This document shows positions 4,428 to 39,778 of a DNA stretch of 64,000 bases, one piece after another. How positions within the stretch are numbered: the first letter of the stretch is position 1; every line of letters starts with the position of its first letter. Source of the stretch: an uncultured Gammaproteobacteria bacterium (GTDB lineage: Bacteria > Pseudomonadota > Gammaproteobacteria > JAURND01); NCBI GenBank assembly GCA_963777715.1, contig CAVZRN010000010.1:86211-150210 (forward strand), read 5' to 3'. Below the pieces are notes generated by a model. That model made no database searches. It was not told the DNA's origin and worked only from the letters and a program-made list of their open reading frames with translations. The translations under genes and the position numbers were made by a program.

Positions 4428-4435
4428 AGAATAGA

Positions 4436-4750
4436 TTAAGCTGCATTTTTAATCCCTTGAAACGTCTTTAAAAAAGCTTCTGGTACTTTCTTGGCTATTA
4501 ATAGTAAACTTTTTGCTGAACCATGTGGTTCACGTCTTCCTTGCTCCCAATTGCGCAAAGTAGCAACACTCACCCCCATAAACGCGGCAAATGCTTGCTG
4601 ACTAAGCCCCAACTTGTGCCGAATTTTTGCCACATCTCCTGCTGTTGGCAAGGTAAGACGAGTAACTTTTAATTTCTTTTGGCCTTTCTGCCATGCCTTG
4701 ATTTCTTCAATACCAGATAATATTTCTTGGCCAATATTTCTATTCTTCAT
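4436..4750 (-). CDS. type II antitoxin, XRE-family HTH (HigA-like)
   Basis: 104 aa. HTH segment is LGLSQQAFAAFMGVSVATLRNWEQGRREP. There is a 4-nt overlap with the upstream toxin ORF, in toxin-first (higBA-type) order. Confidence 0.8.
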   Translation of the reverse strand: MKNRNIGQEILSGIEEIKAWQKGQKKLKVTRLTLPTAGDVAKIRHKLGLSQQAFAAFMGVSVATLRNWEQGRREPHGSAKSLLLIAKKVPEAFLKTFQGIKNAA

Positions 4751-5082
4751 TTGATTGCCTCCAAAGACTTAGCAATACGTGCTAATGTTTGGGTATTTAT
4801 ATTTTCACGCTCTGATTTACTATACATAGTCAACATATAAATTTGATCTCGCGCTTTAGCCCAATAATAAATAACTCGTACACCGCCCGATTTCCCCGTG
4901 CCTTGGAGAGCCCAACGAAGTTTACGAATGCCCCCACTACCAGCAATAATTTTTCCTGCTTCGGGATGCTCCATCAAATAATATTGCATCTCTCGATATT
5001 CTTCGTCACTAAAATATTCCTTTAAGCGGTGACTAAAGTGCGTAGTTTCCACGAATACTACCGTATTATAATTATACGTCAT
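4747..5082 (-). CDS. type II toxin, RelE/HigB (Gp49-like) family
   Basis: 111 aa. The motifs GGIRKLRW and GKSGGVRVIYYW...IYMLTMYSKSE are typical of HigB/Gp49-like mRNA interferases. The gene is translationally coupled to the antitoxin. Confidence 0.8.
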   Translation of the reverse strand: MTYNYNTVVFVETTHFSHRLKEYFSDEEYREMQYYLMEHPEAGKIIAGSGGIRKLRWALQGTGKSGGVRVIYYWAKARDQIYMLTMYSKSERENINTQTLARIAKSLEAIK

Positions 5083-5100
5083 TGGCGCACCCTTCGCAAG

Positions 5101-5421
5101 TTAACGACAACCCTTTTCATTGTATAGCTTGGTAAGGCTGGAGCGTCGATCATTAATTGCCTGGGTTGCTTGCCCCGCATCATAATACGTGTAGGCTAAC
5201 CCCGGCAGCCAAAATAGGGCGGACGCAACATTAGTGCCAGTAACACCTTTTTTAGAATTAACATTTTTTTCAGCTTGATCTGTTTTATGCAATTCAACCT
5301 TTATCTGACTGCAAGATAGGTGGTTATCACCCGCTTGCACCACTTGCACTTTGTCGGAAGTAGCGCAGCCTGTTAACAGACCAGCCATAATCACTGTTGC
5401 AACACAAATAATTTTTTTCAT
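5101..5421 (-). CDS. lipoprotein, unknown function
   Basis: 106 aa. Signal peptide with lipobox LLTGC (MKKIICVATVIMAGLLTGCATS). Confidence 0.6.
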   Translation of the reverse strand: MKKIICVATVIMAGLLTGCATSDKVQVVQAGDNHLSCSQIKVELHKTDQAEKNVNSKKGVTGTNVASALFWLPGLAYTYYDAGQATQAINDRRSSLTKLYNEKGCR

Positions 5422-5474
5422 TGATTTTCCTCTTTTTTATTGTTATGCCCATAGGGATTGATTTATTGTCATTA

Positions 5475-6014
5475 TTATTTGCCTTTCTTAACGGTTCTTT
5501 TTACTTTAAATATTGCGAAATTCATTTCATAGGTGGTTTCAGTTCCCCTAACCTCCAGCCCGTTTTCAGGAATAAGCAAATCGGCCATTAAATCTCCCGT
5601 ATGTTCCATCAGTGATCGCTGTTTAGGTGAATTTTCTGGCAACGTTTGCATTTGGTGAACAACATGGCCCAGTTCTTTGACTTTGGCGAAGGTTTCAATA
5701 ATAGCTATCGTAGTTTCTACCGCTTTGGAGCTTTTTAGAATGGTGGCTAACATATAAAGCCCCTTTTCAGTAAAGGCTGTTGGCGGCTTAACCTTTCCAC
5801 CCTTGATTGAAGTCGAAAATTTCGACTTCAATGGCTCCCATTCCTCCTTACTAAGATCAAAAATATAATCCTCAGGGAACTTTTCTGGATTATTTTTAAC
5901 CGCTTCGTTTATTCGCTTTGTTTCTACACCGTATAACTCAGCGACATCTGCATCAATAATAGCTCTCTGATTGCGAAGGGTAAGAATTTTTTCTTGCACG
6001 GATACTTTTTTCAT
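5475..6014 (-). CDS. ORF6N (KilA-N-like) domain protein
   Basis: 179 aa. The N-terminus ILTLRNQRAIIDADVAELYGVETKRINEAVKNNPEKFPEDYIFDLSKEE matches the ORF6N DNA-binding domain pattern common in mobile elements. Confidence 0.7.
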   Translation of the reverse strand: MKKVSVQEKILTLRNQRAIIDADVAELYGVETKRINEAVKNNPEKFPEDYIFDLSKEEWEPLKSKFSTSIKGGKVKPPTAFTEKGLYMLATILKSSKAVETTIAIIETFAKVKELGHVVHQMQTLPENSPKQRSLMEHTGDLMADLLIPENGLEVRGTETTYEMNFAIFKVKRTVKKGK

Positions 6015-6037
6015 TAGACTTCTTTCCTCATTGTTAT

Positions 6038-6583
6038 CTACTGCACAGAAATCCAGGCAGGTCTATCCCAATGTGGGTCGACACTACCTGACGAAAAAGT
6101 CAAGGTAGGTGTACAGCGAACCCAACCTTGGGGTGACTTTACAATGTCGCCTACTACGTATAATTGATTGTTATAATTGCAGCGTTGCGTTTTCGCAGCA
6201 TCTGACATGTGTTTATCTCCTGGTGTTGTACTTGGTTGAGTCGGTGTGTCCACAGTCGCTTCTCCCATAGAATTAGGCGAATTAGGCTGTAACGGAATTG
6301 GTTTTTTAGCGAGCGGCAGTTTGGGGTTGGCATCGAATACATCTTGGATATATCTTTGTTTCGCTGCCTGTTCAACAAGGTGCTCTACGGCGCTCTTGGT
6401 TAATACTTGCGGCATATCTGCCACATTACTAGACTGTTTTGGTTTGCTATTACCTGTCAAGTTAGTTAGGTTTTTAGATACCAATACGCTCACAACCAAA
6501 ATAGCTATCGCGATAAGTAGTAATCTAAATATCCAAACCTGTGTACGCAAGGAAGGCTTGGTCTTAGTGATCGAAAAAAACAT
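6038..6583 (-). CDS. membrane-anchored hypothetical protein
   Basis: 181 aa. One N-terminal TM helix (VWIFRLLLIAIAILVVSVLV), a Pro/Thr-rich linker and a Cys-containing C-terminal domain. Sits immediately downstream of virB11. Confidence 0.5.
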   Translation of the reverse strand: MFFSITKTKPSLRTQVWIFRLLLIAIAILVVSVLVSKNLTNLTGNSKPKQSSNVADMPQVLTKSAVEHLVEQAAKQRYIQDVFDANPKLPLAKKPIPLQPNSPNSMGEATVDTPTQPSTTPGDKHMSDAAKTQRCNYNNQLYVVGDIVKSPQGWVRCTPTLTFSSGSVDPHWDRPAWISVQ

Positions 6584-6715
6584 GTCTTAATCTCCTATCT
6601 CTTCATACAGTAAAAAATAACCACATAGACCCCCATCCTAACCTTCCCCCGCAAGCGGTGAAAGGGACGAGTCGGTAGAACTCAATCACACTAGCAGACC
6701 TCTCGGCCCTTGTGC

Positions 6716-7684
6716 CTACGTTTGATGTTTGAAGTAAATTTCAGAAACATACATAAACCGATCACTGCTGCCGCAACGCTTGAGTTGGATAACAACGTCA
6801 ATGATAGATTCGATATAATCCCTGATGCGCGCATCGTTCGAAGTAGAACCCGCCTGCTGCATCATAAATACCATCTGGTCAAAACACGCCTGCGGCGTGT
6901 CGGCATGCACTGTAGTTAAACTGCCTGGATGTCCAGAATTAGCCGCTCGCAGATATGGCCATATTTCTACGCCGCGTAATTCCGATAAAAATATGCGATC
7001 AGGTCGCAAGCGCAGACATATTTGAAATATTTTCAGCGCGGTAATTTGCGGATCATCTTCGTTGTAAAGTAAGCGCGCCACATTTGGCTGCTCTACCACG
7101 ACCTCTTTTACATCTTCCACAGTAATCAAGCGTTGATCCGCCGGGACGTATTTAAGACAGGCATTAAGAAACGTGGTTTTTCCGGTTCCAGTGCCACCAC
7201 TAATAATAATGTTCTTGCGAGCAGTTATCGCCAATTGCAAAAATCTTAAGATATCCCGCTGTTCATAAAGCGTTTTCAGTCGATTGGTTACCGGATCAAC
7301 CTGCTGTGATGTAACAAACTCTTTAAACACACCCGCTAATTCATATTCTTGCAATGTCATGTCGCGCATTTGATGGCGACGGATAGACATGACTATATTT
7401 CCATGCTCACACGCAGGGTTCATCACTGCTTGCACGCGTTCGCCATGCGGTAACACGCCGGAAACCAACGGCCTGGGAAATTCCTTGTGATTAAATTCAG
7501 CAATTAATGCAACCAGGGTTTTCAGAAAATTAAACTCCAACACCTCTATCTCATAACGTTCAAATCGGCTATTTTTTTCAACAAACATCTCTCCTGGTCT
7601 GTTGATACAAATTTCTGTTACCCCGGGAATCTCTAAAAAAGGCGCAATGGGTTTTAAGTGATGTTCTAACGCTTTTAGTGACAT
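6716..7684 (-). CDS. virB11: type IV secretion ATPase VirB11
   Basis: 322 aa. Walker A is GGTGTGKTT and RPDRIFLSELRG is present. It is the last gene of the virB-ordered operon. Confidence 0.92.
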   Translation of the reverse strand: MSLKALEHHLKPIAPFLEIPGVTEICINRPGEMFVEKNSRFERYEIEVLEFNFLKTLVALIAEFNHKEFPRPLVSGVLPHGERVQAVMNPACEHGNIVMSIRRHQMRDMTLQEYELAGVFKEFVTSQQVDPVTNRLKTLYEQRDILRFLQLAITARKNIIISGGTGTGKTTFLNACLKYVPADQRLITVEDVKEVVVEQPNVARLLYNEDDPQITALKIFQICLRLRPDRIFLSELRGVEIWPYLRAANSGHPGSLTTVHADTPQACFDQMVFMMQQAGSTSNDARIRDYIESIIDVVIQLKRCGSSDRFMYVSEIYFKHQT

Positions 7685-7685
7685 A

Positions 7686-8873
7686 TCAAAACACGTTTAT
7701 CTTTCTACCGGCCATCTGCATGGCCGTGCCAAAATCCAAGTCATGCGCGACAAATACATTAATTTCCTTACCTTGGTGTGAATATAACGTCGGCGCTAAT
7801 GTGCCGGTTTGTTTTAAGCTCTCATTAGCAGATTGCGCCAGACTATCGGCAACGGCAATTCGATATGCCTGCGCGGCGTTATAGGGGTCACTGCTTTCCA
7901 CTCCCACGTTTTGTACCCCCGCACCAATAATCGACAGCAATACCGCCGAACCAAAACGCTGCCAAAAGTGTCTATTGATCACATCGGCGCCCATCCCAGC
8001 CACACCAATGCTATCCGTACCAGGGGAACCTAGATCAACACTGATGCCGTCAGGTGTAATGAGTCGTGTCCACACCACAAAAATGCGTGATTGCCCCATT
8101 GCTAAGCCACTTTTATACTCTCCCACTAACCGGCTGCCGCGTGGAATAAGAATACGCGAACCATCTTCAGCATAACCTGGTTCTGAAACGACTGCCCTCA
8201 ACATGCCAGGTAGATCTGAATCGGTGGCTGGTTCTAACGTTGCTCGGATAATGCTACCCTGTAAAATCAAATCCGATAGTGGACCCACATGAGTTGCCTC
8301 AACAACTCTGTCATTGACTTCGTGAGAAACCTCAACAACCTCGTCTAAGAAATTGGTATTGGGATCACCCTTGTAACCCTTCGCATGGGTGGCGATAGGC
8401 TTTTGAACGTCAAGTAAATTATTACTACTTGCTGTTTGCATCATTGGGGCCGTCAAACGCGCCTGTAATTCTTTTTCTTTCTCCATAATCATCTTTAATT
8501 GCGCCTCTGTGATTAGCGATTTCTCTGCTGGTTTGGCTGCTGGCATTGGCGCACTGGACTTTTGCTCTGGCCTTACTGGTGAACTTGAAAACCCATAGGT
8601 TTCTTCTACTAGAGCAGCATCTTGTTTTTTGTTAGCGTGATGTGAACACGAGCCAATGACAATCATCACAATCACTGCCGCGATACCCAATACAATTAAT
8701 TTTTTCTTGCTGATATTACCCACAGCTATTTCTGGCCTTCCGTCGGATTCAAAATAATCTTCGTCGCTGTCAATAATTGGCGGCTGCGGCTTAATTATAT
8801 TCTCTGGAATTATTTTTTTTGGAGTTATTTTTTTTGGAATTTTAGTTTTGAGTGGCATATTTTTTCCAATCAC
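7686..8873 (-). CDS. virB10: type IV secretion protein VirB10 (TrbI family)
   Basis: 395 aa. Has an N-terminal Pro-rich region, one TM helix and a C-terminal TrbI-like domain (RIFVVWTRLITPDGISVDL...GVAGMGADVINRH). The true start is possibly the internal M at ~8858. Confidence 0.9.
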   Translation of the reverse strand: MIGKNMPLKTKIPKKITPKKIIPENIIKPQPPIIDSDEDYFESDGRPEIAVGNISKKKLIVLGIAAVIVMIVIGSCSHHANKKQDAALVEETYGFSSSPVRPEQKSSAPMPAAKPAEKSLITEAQLKMIMEKEKELQARLTAPMMQTASSNNLLDVQKPIATHAKGYKGDPNTNFLDEVVEVSHEVNDRVVEATHVGPLSDLILQGSIIRATLEPATDSDLPGMLRAVVSEPGYAEDGSRILIPRGSRLVGEYKSGLAMGQSRIFVVWTRLITPDGISVDLGSPGTDSIGVAGMGADVINRHFWQRFGSAVLLSIIGAGVQNVGVESSDPYNAAQAYRIAVADSLAQSANESLKQTGTLAPTLYSHQGKEINVFVAHDLDFGTAMQMAGRKINVF

Positions 8874-9576
8874 CTATCAGATAATCGTTATAAACACTGG
8901 TCACCACATTGCCGTTACGCAAGGTAAACTGTTTTGCTACCGTGTGAATAACCAGGTAGTCTCCTTCCATATGGTAGTTCACTAATGATTCCTGGCGATT
9001 TTCTCCGACCACGAATACGGCGGGTAGACGACTCATGCCATTGTCTTTGAACTTTAGGTAGGTGAATTTATTATTATCGTAGGCTTCAATCGGCGCTAAA
9101 TTTCTATCGCCCGTAAAACTATATTTCCAGTTAATGTCATTGGGATTAAATTGCCCAACTGCATTGGAATTGCCAAAACTATCGAAGCCACCATCGAGGT
9201 ATTTAAATTGTAGTTTAAACGTCGGCGTTACCGCTTCGTTTTTTGAATCGAGCTGGAAGTTATAACTATTTATGTTGGTTAATACCGTCATATTAGTCTG
9301 CGAAGATGCAACTGGCTTGATAAACAAATTGTTACCCACCGGAACTGCTTGCCAGGCGAGACTATCCCCTAATGATACGTTTTGTACTGTTTCATTTGGC
9401 GCAAATACCACTTGAGTTTGATAACCATAGCGTCCATAAACTACCACCACATTATTAGGATCATAGTTCACCAGCTTTACGCGCCGATCAGCCGATACGC
9501 TTCTTGGAATAAGCTGCGCTTGCGCAACTGAGACGAATAAGCTGGATAAAATAAGGTACAGTATTATTTTTTTCAT
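8842..9576 (-). CDS. virB9: type IV secretion protein VirB9
   Basis: 244 aa with a signal peptide. The beta-rich CagX/VirB9-like sequence includes NWKYSFTGD. Position lies between virB8 and virB10. Confidence 0.85.
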   Translation of the reverse strand: MKKIILYLILSSLFVSVAQAQLIPRSVSADRRVKLVNYDPNNVVVVYGRYGYQTQVVFAPNETVQNVSLGDSLAWQAVPVGNNLFIKPVASSQTNMTVLTNINSYNFQLDSKNEAVTPTFKLQFKYLDGGFDSFGNSNAVGQFNPNDINWKYSFTGDRNLAPIEAYDNNKFTYLKFKDNGMSRLPAVFVVGENRQESLVNYHMEGDYLVIHTVAKQFTLRNGNVVTSVYNDYLIGDWKKYATQN

Positions 9577-9592
9577 ATTAAAATCCTTAATT

Positions 9593-9685
9593 AACCTGAG
9601 TTCGATATATTAAATAAAATACCATATGAACTCAGGTTATCCCAGAAATTTGCTTCATGGACGAGCAAATTATCTGGGATCCAGG
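9593..9685. repeat. family-B double-hairpin dispersed repeat, copy 1 (inside the virB operon)
   Basis: The ~93-nt element aacctgagtt...aactcaggtt + atcccagaaatttgc...gcaaattatctgggat recurs at 37324..37413. A further AT-rich hairpin follows (ttcgatataaaaaat/attttttatatcgaa, ~9702-9737). Confidence 0.85.
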
Positions 9686-9742
9686 TTCATAAAAATACAG
9701 CTTCGATATAAAAAATAGGATATTTTTTATATCGAACTGACG

Positions 9743-10414
9743 TTAATTAACCTGCGAGGTCTGGTAATACACCATTTTAAATCCAAGCGGGTCGCGATCT
9801 AACATTTTTTGCGTCGTATCCGGATTAACGTACTTCCATTTTACAATCGCCTCCCTTTCAACCACTGACTGCGCAGATGAATTACGATCATGTAGTATTT
9901 TTTCAAATTTGACCGAGGCAGTATTAGCATTTAATTGTGATACTGATTTCACCACCACGGTGATGTATTTATCCTTGCCATACATTTTGTAAGGAGATGA
10001 TGCACTGCTACTATTGACGTCACCCTCATACTGCGTTTGTACGTTGTAATCTGACATCGCCCAGGCGATTTGATACGGGTGGTCAATATTGTAGTAATCA
10101 TAACTTTCGCGATTTAGTGTGTAGGTAATTAAGAAATAACGCGTCATTGCCCAATCTGCCGTCATGGTGCTGGCCTCTAGCCGACCTAGTTTTGTCACCT
10201 CTCCAGTGGCGTGATCAAATGAATACAGGTAGGGCACTTTTTCCTTTAGTGGCGCTAAATTTAAATTGGCGATTAACGATAAAATCAAGGCAACAGATAA
10301 AACCACGATGACGACTAAGCATCTTTTTAACCAGACGGATGCATTGAGGTACATGTCGTATAGCCACGCCTCTGACTCTTTCACGATTAATACGTCTTCG
10401 TCGTTGTTTTGCAT
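9743..10414 (-). CDS. virB8: type IV secretion protein VirB8
   Basis: 223 aa. Has an N-terminal TM helix and the C-terminal DPLGFKMVYYQ signature of VirB8. Confidence 0.88.
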   Translation of the reverse strand: MQNNDEDVLIVKESEAWLYDMYLNASVWLKRCLVVIVVLSVALILSLIANLNLAPLKEKVPYLYSFDHATGEVTKLGRLEASTMTADWAMTRYFLITYTLNRESYDYYNIDHPYQIAWAMSDYNVQTQYEGDVNSSSASSPYKMYGKDKYITVVVKSVSQLNANTASVKFEKILHDRNSSAQSVVEREAIVKWKYVNPDTTQKMLDRDPLGFKMVYYQTSQVN

Positions 10415-10464
10415 TGCGATAACCCTTGTATGGCTCTTACTATGAATTTGTCATCCCGAAATGA

Positions 10465-11814
10465 TTAGCCTCTATCTCGAGGATCACGTGGATCACGCGA
10501 ATCATCAGGAATAGTGGGAGGTATACGGCTACCATCACCATCCGGGATAGTGGGTACCTCGTCTGGTTGACGGGGAATACGTGAACCATCACCACCACCA
10601 CCATTCCTGCCACCACCACTACGATCAGGAATATCTATATCAGGGCGTCGATTTATAGGTGGCAACGAACGACTGGGACGAGTCCCGGTATGATTATCAT
10701 CGCGTCGATGGGGGACATGCCCGCCACCACTTCTGCTGCCGCCTCTATGGTCATGGTCATGATCGCGGTGTGAATGATCACGATCGGGCATAAGATTGTG
10801 TTGCCTGCGTCGATGCGAAATAAGGGCGCTCAGGGCGCGTCTATGATGACCCGAGTGTTCAGATGAATGATCGTGATCTGCGCCATCAACCGTCTTTTGC
10901 GTGTTAGCCCTGGCGCCGTTTAGCGTTTGACTAGTGGATGTGAATAGTTGACTCATGCCCGTGAGCGATAACAATCCACTCAACGAAACACATATCGGTA
11001 ATACTTGCCTTAACACCATGAATGCAACAATGCCGACGCAGATAAATGGCAGAATACGTACCTCCTGCGATGCAGTTATGCTGGGATCCGCAGCATTTAA
11101 CGCCGCAGTTTCAATCACCACCATCATGGCTAACACGCTGGTGGTAATTACTGGAATCAGTGCAAAATTCAGCGCATTGCGCACCCAGCTATCAAATAAT
11201 CCACGCGTATTGTCCCAGAGCAGGAACATAATAAATATTGGCCCAACACCTAAGATAACTGCTAATGCCAGCTTGGCGTAAACCAGTAAACATAACCCCA
11301 TCGCACATGAGAATACATCAACCGCTGCAACTAAAAATGCATAGAAGGCTAACCCAATTTTACTTAAGGTCACTTGCTTCATTAGAACAGTGGCAATGTT
11401 CATACCCTGGTTAAATATGGTGTTGAGTGCCTGTGCCGCTGCCAATCCACCATCTGCGCCAGCCTGACCGGGATTGATAGTCTTGGCGATAATAATTGCC
11501 AGTTGATCGGGTTCGTTGGTAAAAATATTAAAAAAGAATTTATTGTAGAGTGACCAGTTAACAATAAGACCATATACAATCGTCATCAATATTAATCGCC
11601 GTATTAATACATGCACATCGGCAGAGGCAGAGCGCACCAGGAACGGATATCCCGCCATGACCACAAAGACTGTAAACAATATGGTAATTTCCGTCATATT
11701 ACTACTGACCAGATTTTGATATACCGCCTGCACGAAGTTACCAATTGACTGGTTTACAAGGTTCATGGTGTCGGTAAAAATTGTCTCAACACCTATGGTA
11801 GAAGTTGTAGCCAT
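10465..11814 (-). CDS. virB6: type IV secretion protein VirB6 (TrbL/VirB6) with a low-complexity C-terminal extension
   Basis: 449 aa. The polytopic core includes GVGPIFIMFLLWDNTRGLFDSWVRN. The last ~140 aa are rich in His/Asp/Arg/Gly/Pro. Confidence 0.85.
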   Translation of the reverse strand: MATTSTIGVETIFTDTMNLVNQSIGNFVQAVYQNLVSSNMTEITILFTVFVVMAGYPFLVRSASADVHVLIRRLILMTIVYGLIVNWSLYNKFFFNIFTNEPDQLAIIIAKTINPGQAGADGGLAAAQALNTIFNQGMNIATVLMKQVTLSKIGLAFYAFLVAAVDVFSCAMGLCLLVYAKLALAVILGVGPIFIMFLLWDNTRGLFDSWVRNALNFALIPVITTSVLAMMVVIETAALNAADPSITASQEVRILPFICVGIVAFMVLRQVLPICVSLSGLLSLTGMSQLFTSTSQTLNGARANTQKTVDGADHDHSSEHSGHHRRALSALISHRRRQHNLMPDRDHSHRDHDHDHRGGSRSGGGHVPHRRDDNHTGTRPSRSLPPINRRPDIDIPDRSGGGRNGGGGDGSRIPRQPDEVPTIPDGDGSRIPPTIPDDSRDPRDPRDRG

Positions 11815-11831
11815 TACTTTATTCCACTAGA

Positions 11832-12221
11832 TTAATTTTGTTTCTCACAAGGTGGCGGCTCTGGTGTTAAAACAAGCTTCCACAGCTGTGGATCTCTTAA
11901 ATCTTCAATAGTGGCATGCTTTGGCAATGCCCCACCGTTTGAAAGGCTTTTAAATATATCATTGGTGAGATCTGCACATTGCTTTTCGAATTCCGGTGCA
12001 GATTTTCTGTCAAGATAGTAGTTACCACACTGCAGCATTCCCCTCTGTGAAGAACCGTAGTTTATATACCTGATCGCCGTATCAGCATAGCCTGGCGTAT
12101 CAAGGATCGGGTTAGCGCGGTGCATGATACCCTTGCTGCAACTGGTTAAGATTAAGCAACCCATGACACACAGACTGGAAAATTTTAGTGAGTTAATTAT
12201 TTTTTTCATTGGCTTCACCAT
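11832..12221 (-). CDS. T4SS-associated lipoprotein (entry-exclusion-like or VirB7-like position)
   Basis: 129 aa (or 125 aa from the MKKIINS start). Lipobox is ILTSC. Lies between the virB5-like and virB6 genes. Confidence 0.55.
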   Translation of the reverse strand: MVKPMKKIINSLKFSSLCVMGCLILTSCSKGIMHRANPILDTPGYADTAIRYINYGSSQRGMLQCGNYYLDRKSAPEFEKQCADLTNDIFKSLSNGGALPKHATIEDLRDPQLWKLVLTPEPPPCEKQN

Positions 12222-12349
12222 TGATTGATTTTGGTTTTCACACCACAGAACGTGGCATGCTCGTCACATGGAGCATTTAACGTTCGCGAGGCGCATCCTG
12301 ACACCAGCACTGCATAAAATAATAAGATAAGAGAAACACTGGTCTTCAT
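12215..12349 (-). CDS. small lipoprotein, VirB7 candidate (not in the ORF track)
   Basis: My own translation of the minus strand gives MKTSVSLILLFYAVLVSGCASRTLNAPCDEHATFCGVKTKINQW (44 aa). Lipobox is VSGC. An AAGGA sequence lies ~9 nt upstream of the ATG, and the stop overlaps the ATG at 12219-12221, one candidate start of the next ORF. Confidence 0.55.
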   Translation of the reverse strand: MKTSVSLILLFYAVLVSGCASRTLNAPCDEHATFCGVKTKINQW

Positions 12350-12366
12350 CGTTAACGTTCCTTAGA

Positions 12367-13083
12367 TTATTGCGTAGGGGTTAAACTTTGCATCACTTCT
12401 ACCTGTGAGTTGACTTCATCCTGGGTTTGCAACGCCTGGTTTTGACTAATCAGGGAAATTTGTCGTAACACTTCTAAATTAATTAAATTTCCTTCCACTT
12501 GCAGGCGGTTCTGCAAATCCGTTGCCGCTTTTAAATCCGCAGTGTTTTCAATCTCCTGTTGCAACGCCTGTTGATTCTGTATCTGTTGTTCTATCTTGTT
12601 GTAATCTAATTGACTCGCTGCGCGTTGCGCCAGGGCTGTTTGTGCCTGCGTAGCGTAGAAACTCTGCTGAATTTTTGAGGGATTACCAGTTAACCCATCA
12701 GGTTGAATGGGAAACTGATTTGCCAGTTGTTGCACTACCTTGCCGTAGTCGCTGGAATCACCCCCACCTTGTGCAATCGATAGCACGCTATTCCAATCAT
12801 GGGTGCTATCTCCCCACGAGATTGCCTGTTGCGTCTTGCTAAAATTTTTGTCCCCTAAGCCATATTTTCCCGTCATCAATTTAGTAATGTCTGCATCCAT
12901 ATCCTTGATATCCTGACCCACTATCTTGGATAAATCCGCATCAACCATTGAAGTTCCGCTGTTTATTTCATTCAATACGTCCATAATGTCGGAAAATTCA
13001 TCGGCATATGCCGCATGTGAAAAAACAAATAATGTGCAAGCCAGGGTTATAGGTTTATTTAAAAAAGGTCTAATGATCTGCAT
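12367..13083 (-). CDS. virB5: VirB5-like minor pilus subunit
   Basis: 238 aa. Has a signal peptide (..FSHAAYA), a Gln-rich helical body, and the right size and position after virB4. No diagnostic motif, so the call is by context. Confidence 0.6.
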   Translation of the reverse strand: MQIIRPFLNKPITLACTLFVFSHAAYADEFSDIMDVLNEINSGTSMVDADLSKIVGQDIKDMDADITKLMTGKYGLGDKNFSKTQQAISWGDSTHDWNSVLSIAQGGGDSSDYGKVVQQLANQFPIQPDGLTGNPSKIQQSFYATQAQTALAQRAASQLDYNKIEQQIQNQQALQQEIENTADLKAATDLQNRLQVEGNLINLEVLRQISLISQNQALQTQDEVNSQVEVMQSLTPTQ

Positions 13084-15523
13084 TTTTTAGCTGCCTCACT
13101 TTTTGTCTGAACACCGGTAGCCAGGTTGAAGGTTCATCACCTAACTCTGCGCGCAGGCTGTCCAATAACATCACCGATTTTTCGGTAGCGGAAATAACCG
13201 CAATTTCATCTTCCATTCCTTCCAAGTTAGCACGCAACACCACCGATTCCTTCCCGCGACCATAATTTAACAAGAAGCAATGCGAATCTTGGCTAAGACG
13301 TTTTACTATGTCATATTCTGATTCGCTCAATCCCAAGTGTGTCACGTAGGTGTCGTAATCGGCAGAGGGATTTGGAAAGAAAATTTTGCATGCAGCCGCT
13401 TCATTAATCGTCGCACTAATGCTGGAGTTAACCGTGTCCTTAGCTGATTGCGTTGCCAACCCAAGGAAGCGATCCTTCTTGCGCGGCGTTCGGGTTTCGT
13501 CATTGATGATGTGCTTAAAATATTCATCATTCATCAAGTTAAAGCCTTCGTCAGCAAAGATCATACTGCGTTGCCCCTTCATCATTTGGCGGCATTTATA
13601 TAGCAAGTACATACATGCTGGTGTCTTGCACATAGCATCCGACAAGATTTCGCCCATATCAAACCCAAGAACACTAACATCAAACGTTAGGCTGTCGTTC
13701 TTGTTATCAAATAGCCACGCGTACTTACCATTACTGTGCCACTCATCCCAACGATGGCGAATGGAATTTTGCTGTTTAGCGCCAAAAAAAGGCGCAATGT
13801 GACATAACTGACGTTCGGAAAAATCTAGCCGATACATGCCTTCGATCGCCAACTCGATTAAATCAGCATCACTTTGTAATAGTGGATCGCCACCTGGAAA
13901 CAGCATCCTGGCAAATAAATTCGATAGGAATTTACGATTGTCTGCGGTATCTTCCAGTTGACAGGGGTTAAACCCCGTAGGCGTACCGGGCTTAATAATT
14001 TCGTACACGCCATTTATAGCACGCACCATAATTTCCAAGCCCCGATCTTTATCGAAAACCAGGCGTTTACCACCGAACTTCATGCTTTGCAAAATAAGAA
14101 ACCCGATCAACACCGTCTTACCGCTGCCAGTTGCACCATACACTAAAAAATTACCTACATCTTTGTAATGAAAGTTAAAGTAGTAGGGACTACCCGCCAA
14201 GGTTTCAAACAATGTCACCGCATCGCCCCAGTGGTTACCAGTTAACTTTCCGCCGGCGGCATTGTGCATACTGGCAAGCGCAGCCATATTCTTAGTAGAG
14301 ATAGTAGCCTTACGTGCTATATAGCTAAAATTACCCGGCAATTGCGCCCAGTATTCGGTTTCGGCAGCCACGTCCTCTCGCACACAGATAATATCTAAAT
14401 CAATAAACCTTGCCACAATATGACCAATCGCATCGGTAAGTTGCGCCTGGCTATCAGCAAAACAAACCAGGCTGAAATGATGTGCGCCAAACCCAACCTC
14501 GCCACTAGCGGCATCATCTAACGCTTGTTCAAGTTGATCTATGTGTCTGCTGGATTCATCGCTAGCCTGACTCATGTCCTTTTTTTGATCACGCACCTTA
14601 CTCTTGGTGGCATGTCGCTCGTAAAAACGGTACGACTGGGTAATGATATATTCCACTGATAATTTACTTATTTCATCTAACATGCCTGCATACGTGTTTG
14701 GCGTGTATTGCTTGATAGACAACACCGCAGCAAATTTTTTGCCGCCGTCAGCATGGCGTATTTCGATGGTCCCGGAACGGCGATTAAAGAATAGGCGGTT
14801 GCGCATTAATGCCCTGGTTGCATCTGGCGTTTCAAACAAAACAGCATGTGGGCTACCATTAAGGATTTGGCTAATTAATTCCAGTGGTCTTGAAAAACGT
14901 AAGCCATTTTTTTTATAGGTCGTTAGCACTTCCGGCTTATAGCTAACCAGCGTATGCAATATTTTTCGCTTTATTTGTTCCAACTCTATTCGCCTTTTGG
15001 CTAGATATTTTCTCTTGGTTTCTTTGTCGGCTTTATGACTTAGTTGTTGGAATTGATTTAGTCCCTTATAAATAATGCCTTCGGGTGGCTTGGTAATAAC
15101 CGCCAAATACAGTTGGTTGACATGCATTTCGCGTTTGCAAATAATTTCCCGGTACTTAGCATTAACTGATCTTGCATAAGAATTTTCAAACTCACCCGCC
15201 GGAAAAGTTACTTGCTTATTACGTATCTGCCAAAAATATAACGCGTAGTCTGATGTAAATCCTTTTAACAAATTATTGCGTCGATGTTTCTGCGTATCGA
15301 GCACAATATCAGCCTGGGTCGATGGATCTATGCCTGCTATTTTAAAAATCATGATGAGCTTTCCACCCTTATCTATTAACGTTTCATGATCGTAATGTCC
15401 GATGATGTTAATTTTTTTTGCAGCTGGCGTTTCACGGCGCGTTAAGAAATCCAATGAATTTGGCAGCCGCTGTTTAAGAATTTGTATTTTTTCTTTATTT
15501 CCCAACATCTCAACCAGGCTCAT
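13070..15523 (-). CDS. virB4: type IV secretion ATPase VirB4
   Basis: 817 aa. Walker A is GATGSGKT, and the length and organisation are CagE/TrbE/VirB4-like. It overlaps both flanking genes. Confidence 0.93.
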   Translation of the reverse strand: MSLVEMLGNKEKIQILKQRLPNSLDFLTRRETPAAKKINIIGHYDHETLIDKGGKLIMIFKIAGIDPSTQADIVLDTQKHRRNNLLKGFTSDYALYFWQIRNKQVTFPAGEFENSYARSVNAKYREIICKREMHVNQLYLAVITKPPEGIIYKGLNQFQQLSHKADKETKRKYLAKRRIELEQIKRKILHTLVSYKPEVLTTYKKNGLRFSRPLELISQILNGSPHAVLFETPDATRALMRNRLFFNRRSGTIEIRHADGGKKFAAVLSIKQYTPNTYAGMLDEISKLSVEYIITQSYRFYERHATKSKVRDQKKDMSQASDESSRHIDQLEQALDDAASGEVGFGAHHFSLVCFADSQAQLTDAIGHIVARFIDLDIICVREDVAAETEYWAQLPGNFSYIARKATISTKNMAALASMHNAAGGKLTGNHWGDAVTLFETLAGSPYYFNFHYKDVGNFLVYGATGSGKTVLIGFLILQSMKFGGKRLVFDKDRGLEIMVRAINGVYEIIKPGTPTGFNPCQLEDTADNRKFLSNLFARMLFPGGDPLLQSDADLIELAIEGMYRLDFSERQLCHIAPFFGAKQQNSIRHRWDEWHSNGKYAWLFDNKNDSLTFDVSVLGFDMGEILSDAMCKTPACMYLLYKCRQMMKGQRSMIFADEGFNLMNDEYFKHIINDETRTPRKKDRFLGLATQSAKDTVNSSISATINEAAACKIFFPNPSADYDTYVTHLGLSESEYDIVKRLSQDSHCFLLNYGRGKESVVLRANLEGMEDEIAVISATEKSVMLLDSLRAELGDEPSTWLPVFRQKVRQLKNADH

Positions 15524-15812
15524 AGCTATTAACTCCTCCCCAAAACCAAAAGTTTTTAACCATGAATGTCCTGGCGAATGCTGTCGTCCATAAGGACAAA
15601 AAATTAGCGTCCCTTGCCGAACAGCGTAATAGGATAACGTGATTTATTACAAACAAACCTGTGCCCCAAAATGATTTAGTATAAATACAGCTTAAAACCC
15701 CAATAGACAGGTTAATCAGGAATAAATTAAAATTAACTCCAGCGAACATAGCCGGACGAGTCATTCCCAGCGCCAGTGCATCTATTTCTAATGTGTAATT
15801 TAAAGTTGGCAT
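15510..15812 (-). CDS. virB3: type IV secretion protein VirB3
   Basis: 100 aa. Contains LALGMTRPAMFAGV followed by a TM segment, directly upstream of virB4. Confidence 0.85.
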   Translation of the reverse strand: MPTLNYTLEIDALALGMTRPAMFAGVNFNLFLINLSIGVLSCIYTKSFWGTGLFVINHVILLRCSARDANFLSLWTTAFARTFMVKNFWFWGGVNSYEPG

Positions 15813-15819
15813 CGTCTGG

Positions 15820-16161
15820 TTACGGTGTTATCAGCGACTTCACGCCAGTGACGATTGCTGGCGCGCCAAACACAATGCAAATGCCACTGATTGTACCGAA
15901 GAAATACATCCAACCGAGCCTACCGAATTTGCACAATAATCCAACAATCGTTACCGCAATTGTCGCAATGGTTACCCCAGTCGCCCCATACATCGCGTCT
16001 AACCAATATTGACCACCCTCGCTAATGGGGGTTTCCCCACTTGCAGCCCATGCGAAAATTGGTATCAACATTAGGCTGTTACATAACCCAATTAGAACAC
16101 ACCACTTATTAAATTTTTTTCTCATGTTTAAGACACCTCTTAAGTCATTGACCAAGTCCAT
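15820..16161 (-). CDS. virB2: VirB2/TrbC-family pilin
   Basis: Long signal sequence ending AWA, then two hydrophobic helices. The likely true start is MRKKFNK at 16125. First gene of the operon. Confidence 0.8.
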   Translation of the reverse strand: MDLVNDLRGVLNMRKKFNKWCVLIGLCNSLMLIPIFAWAASGETPISEGGQYWLDAMYGATGVTIATIAVTIVGLLCKFGRLGWMYFFGTISGICIVFGAPAIVTGVKSLITP

Positions 16162-16221
16162 TCATTAATCACTTCTCCACACAACAATCCTGTAATACTA
16201 AACAGTTATTTTTGATATTCA

Positions 16222-16242
16222 TATAGGTGAAAAATACCTATA
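16222..16242. promoter_or_regulatory. 21-bp palindrome TATAGGT-N7-ACCTATA between the luxR-like gene and virB2
   Basis: Perfect 7-bp arms with a 7-nt spacer, read directly from the sequence, in the 101-nt gap upstream of virB2. This is a candidate operator. Confidence 0.35.
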
Positions 16243-16262
16243 GGGTTTTTATTTTTAATCGA

Positions 16263-16991
16263 CTAGATTCTACTGATCCGGACAGCCAGTATTTCTAACA
16301 ATCCCTTTATGGTGTAACTGCCTCGTGCTTTTTCCCTTATTTTTCCCAAGTGGTTATCTAATGTTTTGTGGGTAATATCTAAAAAGTAGCTGGCTTTTTT
16401 ACTGCTTCTGTATTTTAATAAGCTAAGTAAACAATCTATCTCTCGTAAGGAAAATTTTAGTTTAATGCCTTCTTGAAAATTTATATGTTTCATGAACCAC
16501 AAATTGGCTGCTACCTTGTCGGCATAAAAGTTAAAATATAACTCCCTGATCGTAGTCACGCTTTCCATCCTGGTGACATCAAGGCTCATGGTTAAAATAC
16601 CTCTGACATTTTTTTTATCATTGAAAATTGGTGACTTCACAATTGAATGCACAACGACATAGCCTGTTTTGTTTAAAAATGATTTGTGATTTATGTGCAG
16701 TGCTTTTTTATGCTTCACCACCCAAAGATCAGCGTGGTGTATTTCTTGTACAAACGCATCTGACCATTTATCACGCATGATCTCCTTTCTAAGATCAAAT
16801 ATGGTCTTGCCCATTATTTGAGTTTCCTGCTGTAGATTATAGACATCGAGATTGGCCTGATTGGAAATTTGATAGGTAAGGCCTGTGCTCTCTTTAAAGT
16901 GAGCAATCTCAGGGAAGTTATAAATAAAATCGGGCAATGAATATGCTATAAGATCCTCCCCAGTAAAGTTTTTATGCATTTTACCATCCAA
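16263..16991 (-). CDS. LuxR/GerE-family transcriptional regulator with an N-terminal sensor-like domain
   Basis: 242 aa. The C-terminal HTH is LSLREIDCLLSLLKYRSSKKASYFLDITHKTLDNHLGKIREK. The N-terminal ~170 aa look PAS-like (inference). Confidence 0.75.
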   Translation of the reverse strand: MDGKMHKNFTGEDLIAYSLPDFIYNFPEIAHFKESTGLTYQISNQANLDVYNLQQETQIMGKTIFDLRKEIMRDKWSDAFVQEIHHADLWVVKHKKALHINHKSFLNKTGYVVVHSIVKSPIFNDKKNVRGILTMSLDVTRMESVTTIRELYFNFYADKVAANLWFMKHINFQEGIKLKFSLREIDCLLSLLKYRSSKKASYFLDITHKTLDNHLGKIREKARGSYTIKGLLEILAVRISRI

Positions 16992-17075
16992 TCAGAAGTA
17001 TAAAAATATACTATGTTTAAAAAATGATATAATATGTGTTATTTTGTACTATAGCAATACCGTATTTGCAAGGGG

Positions 17076-17300
17076 GTGAGTAAGGTGACTGAAAAATTGA
17101 CTAACTACGATCCTGCCGAGGATCTAACCTCTGAAGAAGCAATGGCAATCTTCATGACGGAGGCACTTGAGACAAACGACGCTGGCTACATCGTGCATGC
17201 ACTTGGTGTGGTCGCTCGTGCGATTGGTATAACATCCCCCTATTTTTTGACCTCATGTCTGTGTATCCTTTCAGAGTTAAGTATCGTTAACTCTCATTAA
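17076..17300 (+). pseudogene. truncated addiction-module antidote (HigA-family) remnant
   Basis: The N-terminus YDPAEDLTSEEAMAIFMTEALETNDAGYIVHALGVVARA matches the conserved leader of antidote proteins. The HTH part is missing and no toxin partner is present. Confidence 0.5.
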
Positions 17301-17301
17301 T

Positions 17302-17856
17302 ATGCCCCAATACAACCACCAGGACTTAATCGGTTTATTCAACCATCTATTTATGCACACCGAACAAACTGTGTTGGTGGCAGGTAGCGCTGAACCTGTT
17401 TATTTACCACCCGATCAAGATTGTGCGTTTCACCGTATTATTTTCACCCAGGATTATTACGCCAGTGCATTGCATGAAGTTGCGCATTGGTGTATTGCAG
17501 GTAAACAACGGCGTCAACGAATTGATTATGGTTATTGGTATAATCCTGATGGGCGCGATGCTGAGCAACAACAGTTATTTCAACTGGCAGAGGTGAAGCC
17601 GCAGGCGTTAGAGTGGATATTTTCTGCGGCAGCTGGTATAAAATTTCACCTTAGTCAGGATAATCTATCTGCCAATCATACCGCGGATAATCGCTTCGCC
17701 GACGACGTTTACCAGCAAGCATATACTTATTTAATTAATGGCTTACCAGCACGGGCAGAAAAATTTAAGCAAGCATTATTGGATTTTTATGTTGGTGATT
17801 CCACAAAAAATATAACACTGCGTCTTGAAGACATCATGATCCAGAATATTCTATGA
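17302..17856 (+). CDS. epmC: elongation factor P hydroxylase
   Basis: 184 aa, colinear with E. coli YfcM/EpmC. Shared segments are YASALHEVAHWCIAGKQRR, DYGYWYNPDGRDA and EVKPQALEWIF. Confidence 0.85.
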   Translation: MPQYNHQDLIGLFNHLFMHTEQTVLVAGSAEPVYLPPDQDCAFHRIIFTQDYYASALHEVAHWCIAGKQRRQRIDYGYWYNPDGRDAEQQQLFQLAEVKPQALEWIFSAAAGIKFHLSQDNLSANHTADNRFADDVYQQAYTYLINGLPARAEKFKQALLDFYVGDSTKNITLRLEDIMIQNIL

Positions 17857-18969: not shown

Positions 18970-19497
18970 CTATAATATAATACAACCCTTTTTCATTGTG
19001 TCCCTGTGCTCCGACTCATCACTATGGTCAGCATCGTCTGTATCTGGTGAACAAGCGCTTATTAACTCGTCATGCATTGAGATTTTTTTAGAGTCCTGTG
19101 GGGGAGGAAATATTTGACCGGAAGTAGAAGCAAACACACTTGAAGAATTAATTTGGTCCGAGTTAGTAGAGAGAGTATTATTTTTCTTATATGCTAGTAT
19201 TGACATTGCTTTTTTACATTCCTCTAATAAACGCTCCTCAAGTGGAGTTCTCTTTTCTATTAAACTAAGTGCATTATAGTCCTCCTGAACACGTCTAGTA
19301 TGTTCTTCAATACTCCTATATTCTCTTCCCGCAACCTGATCTACAAGAGCAATTCTATGGAGAGGAATCTCTATTGTCTCACCACCAGGATTGGAAGAAG
19401 GCGGTTCGAATTTGGACAAGAACGCGCTATGCTCTCCCTCGCTTCGCGATGTTATATCTTGTTCTTTTTTCTGTACTTTAGATTTTTCATCACTCAT
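18970..19497 (-). CDS. hypothetical protein ending in a CaaX box (candidate host-prenylated effector)
   Basis: 175 aa, acidic and Ser-rich. The C-terminus ...MKKGCIIL-stop was verified on the minus strand (ATG AAA AAG GGT TGT ATT ATA TTA TAG). The gene is AT-rich (17/60 G+C in the line starting 19141). Confidence 0.6.
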   Translation of the reverse strand: MSDEKSKVQKKEQDITSRSEGEHSAFLSKFEPPSSNPGGETIEIPLHRIALVDQVAGREYRSIEEHTRRVQEDYNALSLIEKRTPLEERLLEECKKAMSILAYKKNNTLSTNSDQINSSSVFASTSGQIFPPPQDSKKISMHDELISACSPDTDDADHSDESEHRDTMKKGCIIL

Positions 19498-37285: not shown

Positions 37286-37323
37286 ATACTTTCTCGCTAT
37301 ACCCTAACAGTTGTACTATAATT

Positions 37324-37413
37324 AACCTGAGTCGGATGTATTAAATAAAATACCGAGAAACTCAGGTTATCCTGGAAGGTTGCCTCATGGATGAGCAAAC
37401 TATCTGGGATCCA
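37324..37413. repeat. family-B double-hairpin repeat, copy 2
   Basis: aacctgagtcgg...aactcaggttatcctggaaggttgcctcatggatgagcaaactatctgggatccag aligns with 9593..9685. Confidence 0.85.
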
Positions 37414-37449
37414 GCGTAATAAAAACAACAAGATGGGAGATCAAAAAGT

Positions 37450-37890
37450 ATGCCAGATTTAAGCTTGCCCGCTGCGCAGCGGTTTTGGCATGAATACCAA
37501 GACCCTATTATCTACCGCGTAGTTACCTTCATGGAAGGAGTGGAGGACTGGACACTGGATGGAGACCCTCATTTAGAGGCAGCTATGCAGCAACTAGGGC
37601 AAGTATTGGAAGATATTGGTGGCGTAGATCTGCAAAGAGAAGATGATTTCATCAAGCTTGCTGCATATATAAAGGCGAGCCGCAATTTGCGATTATTACA
37701 ATGTTTAGATACTGCGCATCCAGGCGCCGCTTCAAAACTATTAATGCATGCTGAAACAGCTGCTGCAGCAAATGATGAAATCGCAGATTTATTTTTAAGG
37801 CGTAATATTGTTTTTGAACGCCTACGTTTGTTAACACGAGTTTTTTCTCCGGAACGATTTGCATTGCTACAAAAAGTGTTGGAGGAATAA
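37450..37890 (+). CDS. icmW: Dot/Icm type IVB secretion chaperone IcmW
   Basis: 146 aa. The sequence MPDLS...FWHEYQDPIIYRVVTFMEGVEDWTLDGDPHLEAAMQQLGQ...RNIVFERLRLLTRVF is colinear with L. pneumophila IcmW as I remember it. Confidence 0.85.
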   Translation: MPDLSLPAAQRFWHEYQDPIIYRVVTFMEGVEDWTLDGDPHLEAAMQQLGQVLEDIGGVDLQREDDFIKLAAYIKASRNLRLLQCLDTAHPGAASKLLMHAETAAAANDEIADLFLRRNIVFERLRLLTRVFSPERFALLQKVLEE

Positions 37891-38515: not shown

Positions 38516-39778
38516 ATGAACAAGTCAAAACTAAATTACAAATTAAAGGCATCGCCCCGTAAAAACAACGCCAAACGTGCATTAGCCGTTATCGCCCTGG
38601 GATTATTTGTGTCACCAATGGCGTTAGCAGCAAAAACGTTGGACGACGTGGTCACGGCCATTACTACTTTTCAAACCAGCCTTGTTGGGCAACAAGTAAT
38701 ACCGTTTGTCAGTTATTATCAAGGGTTAATGAACATGGTTGATACGACCTATGAGCCGGCGGCAAGTTTGGCAAATACCAGCTTTAAAACTGCATCGGTA
38801 GGGTCGTTCGTCCGCACTCAGGTAGATGAGAAAACGTTAACAAAAGTAGCACAAGTGCTGACACAGGCTAATTCAGGCGCCCAATTTTCTGCGTTAGCTG
38901 CCCTTCCTGCCAGTGATATCGAACCGAATGTAATAACTAATTCGAAACCGTGGAATTCTGATGATTTTCGCTTGTATGCGAATTCATTATTAGGGAAGGA
39001 TGCCTATGATCAAGGCACCACTGGCAGTACTGATAAGAATAATGCAGAACAAGCGGTTGTATTTCTATCAGATTACACCAACCCATTGGGTTCTATCGAT
39101 TTATCAACATTAACTGCTGATCAACTAAAAACAGTTCAAACATCAGTGGATGGACAACAATATCTCACACACCGTCGTGGTAAGGCGGCGATCCGCTCGT
39201 TAATACTCAGTAATTTTTATAGCATGTTAATGGCGCGCACACCGGTTAAGAATTTAGGTCTGGATGCAGGGTTGCCGGGGAGCAGTAGTACAGCGGGAGC
39301 GAATGGAGCACCGGCAACAGCAGGAAGCCCAGATGCCAGCCCATTGCAAGTTGAAAGATACATTGCTACCAGGCGGGTTGACGATGCTGATTGGTATACA
39401 GCGATGAATAAGGCGCCGGAGATAGTTGTGGCGCGAGAAACACTATTTGTCTTGGCGGAAATGGAAAAACAACTGTTTCAGATTCAGCAACAAAATGAAC
39501 GCATATTGGCGACATTAACCGCCACAGCAGTGATAAACCTTAGTTCCAGCACGTTACTACCAGACCAAAACGAAAATGATTTACGTGGTCAACTGGGCTT
39601 GGCTCAGACAGGTCCAGCAGCAGCGATTACCACTGCTGCAAGCCAGGCTAGCGACAATAACAATAAAAACAATAGCAACAATAACAGCTCGTCAAATCAA
39701 GCAAATAGTGCCCTGAGTGCAGCAGGAGTTACACCGCCAGCAGGAAGCAGTACTACTACAACGTCAGGAGGGAAGTAG
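38516..39778 (+). CDS. icmX: probable IcmX (Dot/Icm periplasmic/secreted component)
   Basis: 420 aa with a Sec signal peptide (ALGLFVSPMALAA). Position downstream of icmW is as in Legionella and Coxiella. The call is mainly by synteny and size. Confidence 0.5.
   Translation: MNKSKLNYKLKASPRKNNAKRALAVIALGLFVSPMALAAKTLDDVVTAITTFQTSLVGQQVIPFVSYYQGLMNMVDTTYEPAASLANTSFKTASVGSFVRTQVDEKTLTKVAQVLTQANSGAQFSALAALPASDIEPNVITNSKPWNSDDFRLYANSLLGKDAYDQGTTGSTDKNNAEQAVVFLSDYTNPLGSIDLSTLTADQLKTVQTSVDGQQYLTHRRGKAAIRSLILSNFYSMLMARTPVKNLGLDAGLPGSSSTAGANGAPATAGSPDASPLQVERYIATRRVDDADWYTAMNKAPEIVVARETLFVLAEMEKQLFQIQQQNERILATLTATAVINLSSSTLLPDQNENDLRGQLGLAQTGPAAAITTAASQASDNNNKNNSNNNSSSNQANSALSAAGVTPPAGSSTTTTSGGK

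Follow-up and report, generated by a model that had tools for sequence, protein, structure and literature searches.

A VirB-type secretion locus without coupling protein and relaxase in an uncultured Legionella/Coxiella-like bacterium: a probable stranded mating-channel module

Introduction

Self-transmissible conjugative elements are recognized by the joint presence of a VirB4 ATPase, a type IV coupling protein (T4CP) and a relaxase (PMC3158045). Type IV secretion systems (T4SS) with a VirB4 cluster and no relaxase have been described as MOBless (Guglielmini et al. 2011, PMC3158045), and most of these loci were argued to be protein secretion systems. VirB-type channels without a coupling protein are known from Bordetella Ptl, Brucella VirB, Helicobacter ComB and Bartonella Trw (PMC12857230). 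Here we describe a VirB-type locus from an uncultured Legionella/Coxiella-like bacterium, located in a stretch of 64,000 nucleotides (the window; contig CAVZRN010000010.1, positions 86,211 to 150,210, assembly GCA_963777715.1). According to Pfam and NCBIfam profiles, the minus strand of the window encodes an intact VirB2–VirB11 channel gene set at 6716–16161. A coupling protein, a relaxase, a lytic transglycosylase and an integrase are absent from the window, as an earlier reading of the sequence alone (the sequence-only reading) had stated. With moderate confidence we regard the block as a stranded, non-self-transmissible mating-channel module of a lineage-specific conjugative element.

Among the described conjugation systems, Trw of R388 and Tra of pKM101 (mating-pair-formation type T, MPF_T) have the same virB2 to virB11 set in the same order, including a small lipoprotein gene between virB5 and virB6. 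In contrast to these systems, to which it is only about 35–37% identical, the locus lacks VirB1, coupling protein and relaxase, and it adds a gene for a membrane protein (p181) after virB11 as well as a long charged tail of VirB6. It resembles the MOBless T4SS in having a VirB4 cluster without relaxase in a small host-associated genome, and, in addition, a T4CP and a nearby integrase are lacking. Whereas most loci of that class were argued to be protein secretion systems, the comparative evidence indicates that our locus arose from a conjugative ancestor by recent loss. With the VirD4-less systems the locus shares the channel without coupling protein. It differs from them in that substrate genes are not linked and the genes for pilin and VirB5 are not multiplied, while VirB5 and VirB11 are both present. 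Furthermore, the coupling-protein-less state is not conserved in the lineage: 15 related loci keep the coupling protein, and close relatives of the organism are without the island. Lvh of Legionella pneumophila is also a VirB-type system in an order that bears Dot/Icm, and a 44-aa lipoprotein of our locus weakly matches LvhB7. Lvh differs in that lvhD4 adjoins lvhB11.

Much higher identities of VirB4 (54–62%) are found for elements of Rickettsiella, Coxiellaceae and metagenome-assembled genomes (MAGs) of Legionellales, for example on the chromosome of Candidatus Rickettsiella viridis (L010). These elements have the same gene order, VirB7-like and 113–129-aa lipoproteins, and LuxR/GerE or CsrA regulators nearby. 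However, a TrwB-type coupling protein and a MobC-like protein of 214 aa are encoded there and not at the window locus. Literature searches aimed at this Legionellales/Coxiellaceae family of VirB-type elements found no description of it.

Results

The VirB4 ATPase has thousands of homologues. Only MAGs and genomes of Coxiellaceae, Rickettsiella, Aquirickettsiella and Legionellales fall into the band of 54–62% identity, whereas outside this branch the next band starts from ~35% (about 35–37%). Among plasmids, rhizobial VirB4 proteins match best (37%), and TrwK of R388 is the top match among solved structures (1.2e-130). Features of MPF_T are the VirB4/CagE-family ATPase and the arrangement of virB2, virB3, virB5, virB6 and virB8 to virB11 in one operon. 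Judged by its sequence, the system is a type IVA system of the VirB/Trw type (MPF_T) which belongs to an order-restricted branch (Legionellales/Coxiellaceae). In a tree of six concatenated core proteins the window groups with Rickettsiella and with the loci L007 and L020. VirB4 of the nearest relative is only 62% identical and, consequently, synonymous sites are saturated. No Legionella genome is found among the 80 best VirB4 loci. VirB1 is missing in all nine related loci that were annotated with Pfam; hence, the lack of VirB1 characterizes the branch as a whole. In our assembly, all SLT matches lie outside the window, which contains no VirB1.

For comparison, open reading frames (ORFs) from 23 related loci were clustered; loci that end too early are uninformative for the coupling protein. 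Two gene families recur beside the operon, namely a TrwB/TraD-type coupling protein (~570 aa) and a protein of ~214 aa, whose gene usually lies directly upstream of the coupling protein gene. The coupling protein is present in the 15 related loci with enough flank and, in every informative relative, it is encoded at most about 8 kb from the virB operon. The 214-aa protein matches the NCBIfam MobC replication-relaxation subfamily NF041423 over nearly its full length with 9e-14, a score below the curated cut-off. Relaxases of the MOB_C type are restriction-endonuclease-like (PMC12857230). Thus, the MobC-like character of the 214-aa protein would explain why a classical relaxase is not seen in the elements of this branch. 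The MobC-like/coupling pair follows virB11 in one group, often behind an SSB gene, and precedes virB2 in Rickettsiella and in the sub-branch with p181 (L020, L104 and L105). In L007 the coupling gene is broken into five or six fragments, and the channel operon beside it is intact. Because the relatives of the branch keep the coupling protein, and L007 keeps it in fragments, its absence from the window is best understood as a derived loss rather than a design feature.

The expected position of the lost genes can be inspected in the window. Upstream of virB2, where the p181 sub-branch has its transfer module, a LuxR-like gene is located (16263–16991, minus strand). It encodes a divergent PAS and LuxR/GerE-type regulator, with both matches below the Pfam cut-offs. 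At a distance of 85 bp follows an antidote gene of the HI1420 type (17076–17300, plus strand), which is of half length (profile positions 2–47 of 90) and has no partner toxin. This half-length antidote is a rearrangement scar at the position expected for the transfer module.

The assembly in which the missing genes were searched comprises 2.05 Mb in 25 contigs and is 67% complete. The profiles PF02534, PF12696, PF03432, PF08751, PF03389, PF07514 and PF13814 gave zero matches in these 2.05 Mb, and PF10412 yielded only P-loop noise (Ffh, a PilT-like ATPase and VirB11 itself). Nothing was found by tblastn of the assembly with coupling proteins from relatives of the branch and of the family, nor with branch-specific hidden Markov models (HMMs) of the coupling protein and the MobC-like protein against its six frames. 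The assembly likewise contains no relaxase detectable with the MOB_F, MOB_P, MOB_Q, MOB_H and MOB_C profiles, MOB_V and MOB_T not being part of this search. For integrases (PF00589) there is no match in the window; the matches of the assembly all lie elsewhere, and none belongs to the block. Of the three components of a self-transmissible element, therefore, VirB4 was found in the assembly, and T4CP and relaxase were not.

A control shows how far this absence reaches. A DotG-sized protein with a TrbI domain (835–892 aa) is encoded in five near-complete genomes of the family and is not found in our assembly. Since dotG is absent despite the presence of icmW (37450–37890, 3.5e-55), a core Dot/Icm region must be missing from the assembly, and the main Dot/Icm cluster is probably located in unassembled DNA. 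Given the completeness of 67% and the dotG gap, the absence of the coupling protein can be claimed at the locus and not for the genome as a whole. The profile searches for VirD4 and relaxases thus confirm the absence at the locus and in the 2.05 Mb, whereas the genome-wide claim does not hold. PF12696 was considered as a control for DotL and rejected, because its hits in relatives are TraD of the F type or the TOL/SXT type, not DotL.

The insertion site was examined by synteny. The block had been placed between purK and epmC. While the border at purK was upheld, epmC (17302–17856, plus strand) is not the right border: synteny breaks between purK and mutY, with epmC inside the non-syntenic block. 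In the relative G001 of the same family, purK is followed after a gap of 15 bp by mutY and then by yggX. The gap between purK and mutY amounts to 1.1 kb in G006 and 3 kb in G003, compared to 13.4 kb in the window (4428–17852, epmC included); epmC is present in only one of eight family genomes. None of these eight genomes has this branch of VirB4, and their own VirB4 proteins are 31–33% identical to that of the window. As the family genomes are without this VirB4 branch and the gap is variable, the block is regarded as an acquisition at a variable spot. Neither flanking direct repeats nor attachment-site repeats were found at the block borders. Hence, both border features of an integrative and conjugative element (ICE), integrase and attachment repeats, are absent at the locus. 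The G+C content of the block is 0.42–0.43 versus 0.444 for the genome. These comparisons are made at the level of the family: the two MAGs of the same genus comprise ~1 Mb, are highly fragmented and have PurK proteins that are only ~65% identical.

Two further genes lie beyond mutY. An orphan ORF of 175 aa (18970–19497) separates mutY and yggX, which are neighbours in relatives, and directly past yggX a gene of 560 aa with AAA-ATPase_like and PDDEXK_9 domains is located (20082–21764). Both are further small insertions in the neighbourhood. The latter was considered as a counterpart of an ORF of similar length near the T4SS of L007 and rejected, since the two are unrelated.

Within the operon, two features bear on the history of the locus. 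The gap between virB8 and virB9 measures ~10 bp in relatives and 167 bp in the window, where a palindromic repeat of ~165 bp (9577–9752, without strand) fills it. This repeat resembles a miniature inverted-repeat transposable element (MITE) and begins exactly at the stop codon of virB8. As terminal inverted repeats it has TTAATTAAC[CG]T[GC]AGTTCGATATA, and an inner perfect 16-bp A/T hairpin is present. At least eight further long copies occur in the genome (contigs C4, C9, C10, C13, C18 and C19); one copy is located at about 37319–37425, just upstream of icmW. The occurrence of a host-genome repeat inside the operon implies that the island has been resident long enough for colonisation. The second feature is VirB6 (449 aa, 10465–11814, minus strand; TrbL 5.8e-28), which diverges more than any other core protein, with changes at 18 of the 51 positions that are invariant in relatives. 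Its C-terminus (10465–10860) forms a unique tail of ~130 aa and low complexity, in which His, Arg, Asp, Gly and Pro are abundant and a GDGSRIP motif is repeated. The tail is absent in all relatives compared, where VirB6 has 315–350 aa.

The 181-aa single-pass membrane protein p181 (6038–6583, minus strand) starts with a single membrane helix at the N-terminus, which a linker connects to a small beta domain with two cysteines. Its gene is located after virB11 in a single sub-branch (L007, L020, L104 and L105). The family is small, with 52 clusters among 1.8 billion proteins in an exhaustive profile search, for which neither names nor genomic context are available; a word-based search retrieved only one homologue. 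A structure predicted from an alignment of four sequences (mean pLDDT 54, pTM 0.24) was too poor for a fold search. Since p181 is likewise encoded in relatives which have retained the coupling protein, it is no adaptation to the loss of the latter.

The remaining genes of the block confirm its content and order as read before (luxR-like gene, virB2 to virB11, membrane protein, ORF6N protein and lipoproteins), and profile matches support both edges, an intact higBA-like module on the left and the shortened antidote on the right. All of the following genes are encoded on the minus strand. The pilin gene virB2 (15820–16161) and virB3 (15510–15812) are followed by virB4 (13070–15523; Walker A motif GATGSGKT), which matches TIGR00929 with 1.9e-201 and 671 bits, exceeding the cut-off of 643. 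Next come the gene of a VirB5-like protein (12367–13083, 3.1e-09) and that of the 44-aa VirB7-like lipoprotein (12215–12349), which has a lipobox, matches LvhB7 with 3.1e-05 (far below the cut-off) and is conserved in all relatives compared. A lipoprotein of 129 aa (11832–12221) is kept between the VirB7-like and VirB6 genes in one sub-branch. Downstream of virB6 are virB8 (9743–10414, 1.5e-35), virB9 (8842–9576; CagX 4.4e-55), virB10 (7686–8873; TrbI 4.6e-54) and the gene of the VirB11 ATPase (6716–7684; Walker A motif GGTGTGKT; T2SSE, TIGR02788 6.6e-99). Thus, Walker motifs are present in both VirB4 and VirB11.

Beyond p181, the block contains an ORF6N (KilA-N-like) DNA-binding protein (5475–6014, 6.2e-31) with a homologue near the T4SS of L007, and a lipoprotein of 106 aa (5101–5421, lipobox LTGC) that has no family match and no homologue in the related loci. 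The left edge is formed by a HigB/RelE-like toxin of 111 aa (PF06296; 4747–5082, 4.8e-08) and a HigA-like antitoxin of 104 aa (HTH_3/MqsA-like; 4436–4750, HTH_3 4.5e-09), whose stop codon is 8 bp from that of purK. No ORF of the block is interrupted, and most neighbours either overlap or are separated by less than 20 bp. VirB4 and each of the other channel genes occur once in the assembly. virB2 and virB5 are single; their neighbours are the toxin-antitoxin pair, ORF6N, the lipoproteins and the regulator, and no candidates for substrates, toxins or a duplicated pilin or VirB5 were found among the ORFs of the block. Promoter and terminator scans gave a signal no higher than expected from shuffled sequences. 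Outside the block, icmW was confirmed, whereas the gene taken for a probable icmX (38516–39778) gave only a weak match (7e-09), far below the family cut-off.

Several observations were made on the related elements themselves. L104 carries ParA and RepA_C and is thus plasmid-like, and L020 carries a tyrosine recombinase. Broken genes occur elsewhere in the branch: virB9 is split in R. viridis, virB8 and virB11 are broken in L017, and L022 has a broken coupling gene and L025 a truncated VirB4. The loci L010–L028, L104 and L105 have a compact putative transfer module, in which the 214-aa MobC-like gene is followed by the TrwB-type gene and a classical relaxase is absent; often they also bear an S24/HTH repressor, CsrA and SSB. 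In several related T4SS loci, genes for Phg_2220_C and p94 precede virB2. Homologues of both (HMM 8e-74 and 3e-17) are located on the minus strand of contig C20 (12021–13278); the region around them is prophage-like and encodes a tyrosine recombinase (C20:16176–16676). Therefore, the T4SS elements of this branch have a phage-type replication/regulation module in common. In L007, a protein with an OTU (deubiquitinase-like) domain and two DUF6765-like paralogues are encoded between the fragmented coupling gene and virB2 (5982–7460), and they may be eukaryote-directed cargo of such elements. Finally, L023, which is titled Wolbachia endosymbiont of Folsomia candida, contains a Rickettsiella-type T4SS that in the tree is nearly identical to those of L026 and L028, probably because of a binning error or a recent transfer.

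Discussion

The locus is a known kind of leftover, a T4SS without relaxase and coupling protein, and not a new secretion system. Its ancestor would have been a conjugative element (plasmid or ICE) of the type restricted to Legionellales/Coxiellaceae, which inserted in the variable gap between purK and mutY. Later, the candidate MobC-like relaxase of ~214 aa, the TrwB-type coupling ATPase of ~570 aa and any recombinase may have been lost, and the remaining half would represent the mating-pair-formation channel only. The cell can probably still build a pilus and an envelope channel, since the coupling protein is required for substrate transfer and not for making pili: in F and pKM101, its deletion raises piliation (PMC13463995). 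The module alone, however, should be unable to recruit or export DNA. It may drift towards decay, or its only use may be as a channel for a second element equipped with a coupling protein and a relaxase of its own. CloDF13, with its own coupling protein and a MOB_C relaxase, is such a user of helper channels. Among the three options raised by the sequence-only reading, the decaying or stranded conjugative element is thus the one we prefer, whereas a machine for effectors or for DNA release or uptake, and a borrowed coupling protein, gained no specific support.

Some observations weigh against this interpretation. All twelve channel genes are open and have kept their translational coupling, and the host-genome repeat entered the operon without breaking a gene. 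Outside VirB6, 24 otherwise invariant positions are changed in the window compared to 21 in the intact L020, and the root-to-tip distance in the six-protein tree (0.57) is near that of the Rickettsiella tips (0.52–0.58). Intact genes, ordinary divergence and harmless entry of the repeat could indicate continued selection for function. In addition, the assembly is only 67% complete and is without dotG, which five near-complete relatives have; therefore, a coupling protein and a relaxase acting in trans could be encoded in unassembled DNA.

A rival reading is a repurposed machine that is independent of a coupling protein, be it an adhesive pilus as in Bartonella Trw, a two-step periplasmic secretion system as for Ptl and some Brucella substrates, or a DNA uptake system as in ComB; the VirB6 tail may be part of it. 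The operon remained intact although it was resident long enough for invasion by the repeat, and VirB6 is unusually changed and carries the unique charged extension of ~130 aa. Furthermore, VirD4-less systems are an established class (PMC12857230) and relaxase-less T4SS are enriched in host-associated bacteria (PMC3158045). We nevertheless consider repurposing unlikely. Genes for candidate substrates, toxins or a duplicated pilin or VirB5 do not occur nearby, p181 is shared with relatives that have the coupling protein, the lack of a coupling protein is confined to this locus and to L007, where a pseudogene is left, and VirB11 and VirB5 are present, unlike in ComB. That an intracellular Legionellales bacterium keeps the VirB channel for a non-conjugative use beside Dot/Icm, as an adhesive pilus or for secretion from the periplasm to the outside and with the remodelled VirB6 tail included, appears quite improbable.

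A system that is still conjugative or mobilising, and whose coupling protein and relaxase genes lie on a plasmid or in that third of the genome which the assembly misses, would agree with the incomplete assembly, with the lack of dotG next to a present icmW while five near-complete relatives encode a DotG-sized TrbI protein, and with the integrity of every channel gene. The arrangement in the relatives makes such an action in trans rather doubtful. All informative relatives have the coupling protein within about 8 kb of the virB operon, but no such gene is present on the known flanks in the window, which cover more than 4 kb on one side and more than 40 kb on the other, and the half antidote scar occupies the expected position. 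Borrowing of the Dot/Icm coupling protein DotL by the type IVA channel is extremely unlikely, since the presence of icmW, which encodes an adaptor of the DotL complex, in the same window is countered by the lack of any DotL-like or other T4CP-like gene in the assembly, and to our knowledge there is no precedent for DotL feeding a VirB-type channel.

As a stranded mating-channel module, the locus is an ordinary case that shows the erosion of conjugative elements in host-restricted bacteria, in which the channel genes outlast the genes for DNA processing. The more useful by-product of the analysis is a coherent family of VirB-type elements restricted to Legionellales/Coxiellaceae, with a compact transfer module and phage-like regulators. 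It is plausible that this family is a vehicle for gene exchange among intracellular bacteria which share amoebal or arthropod hosts.

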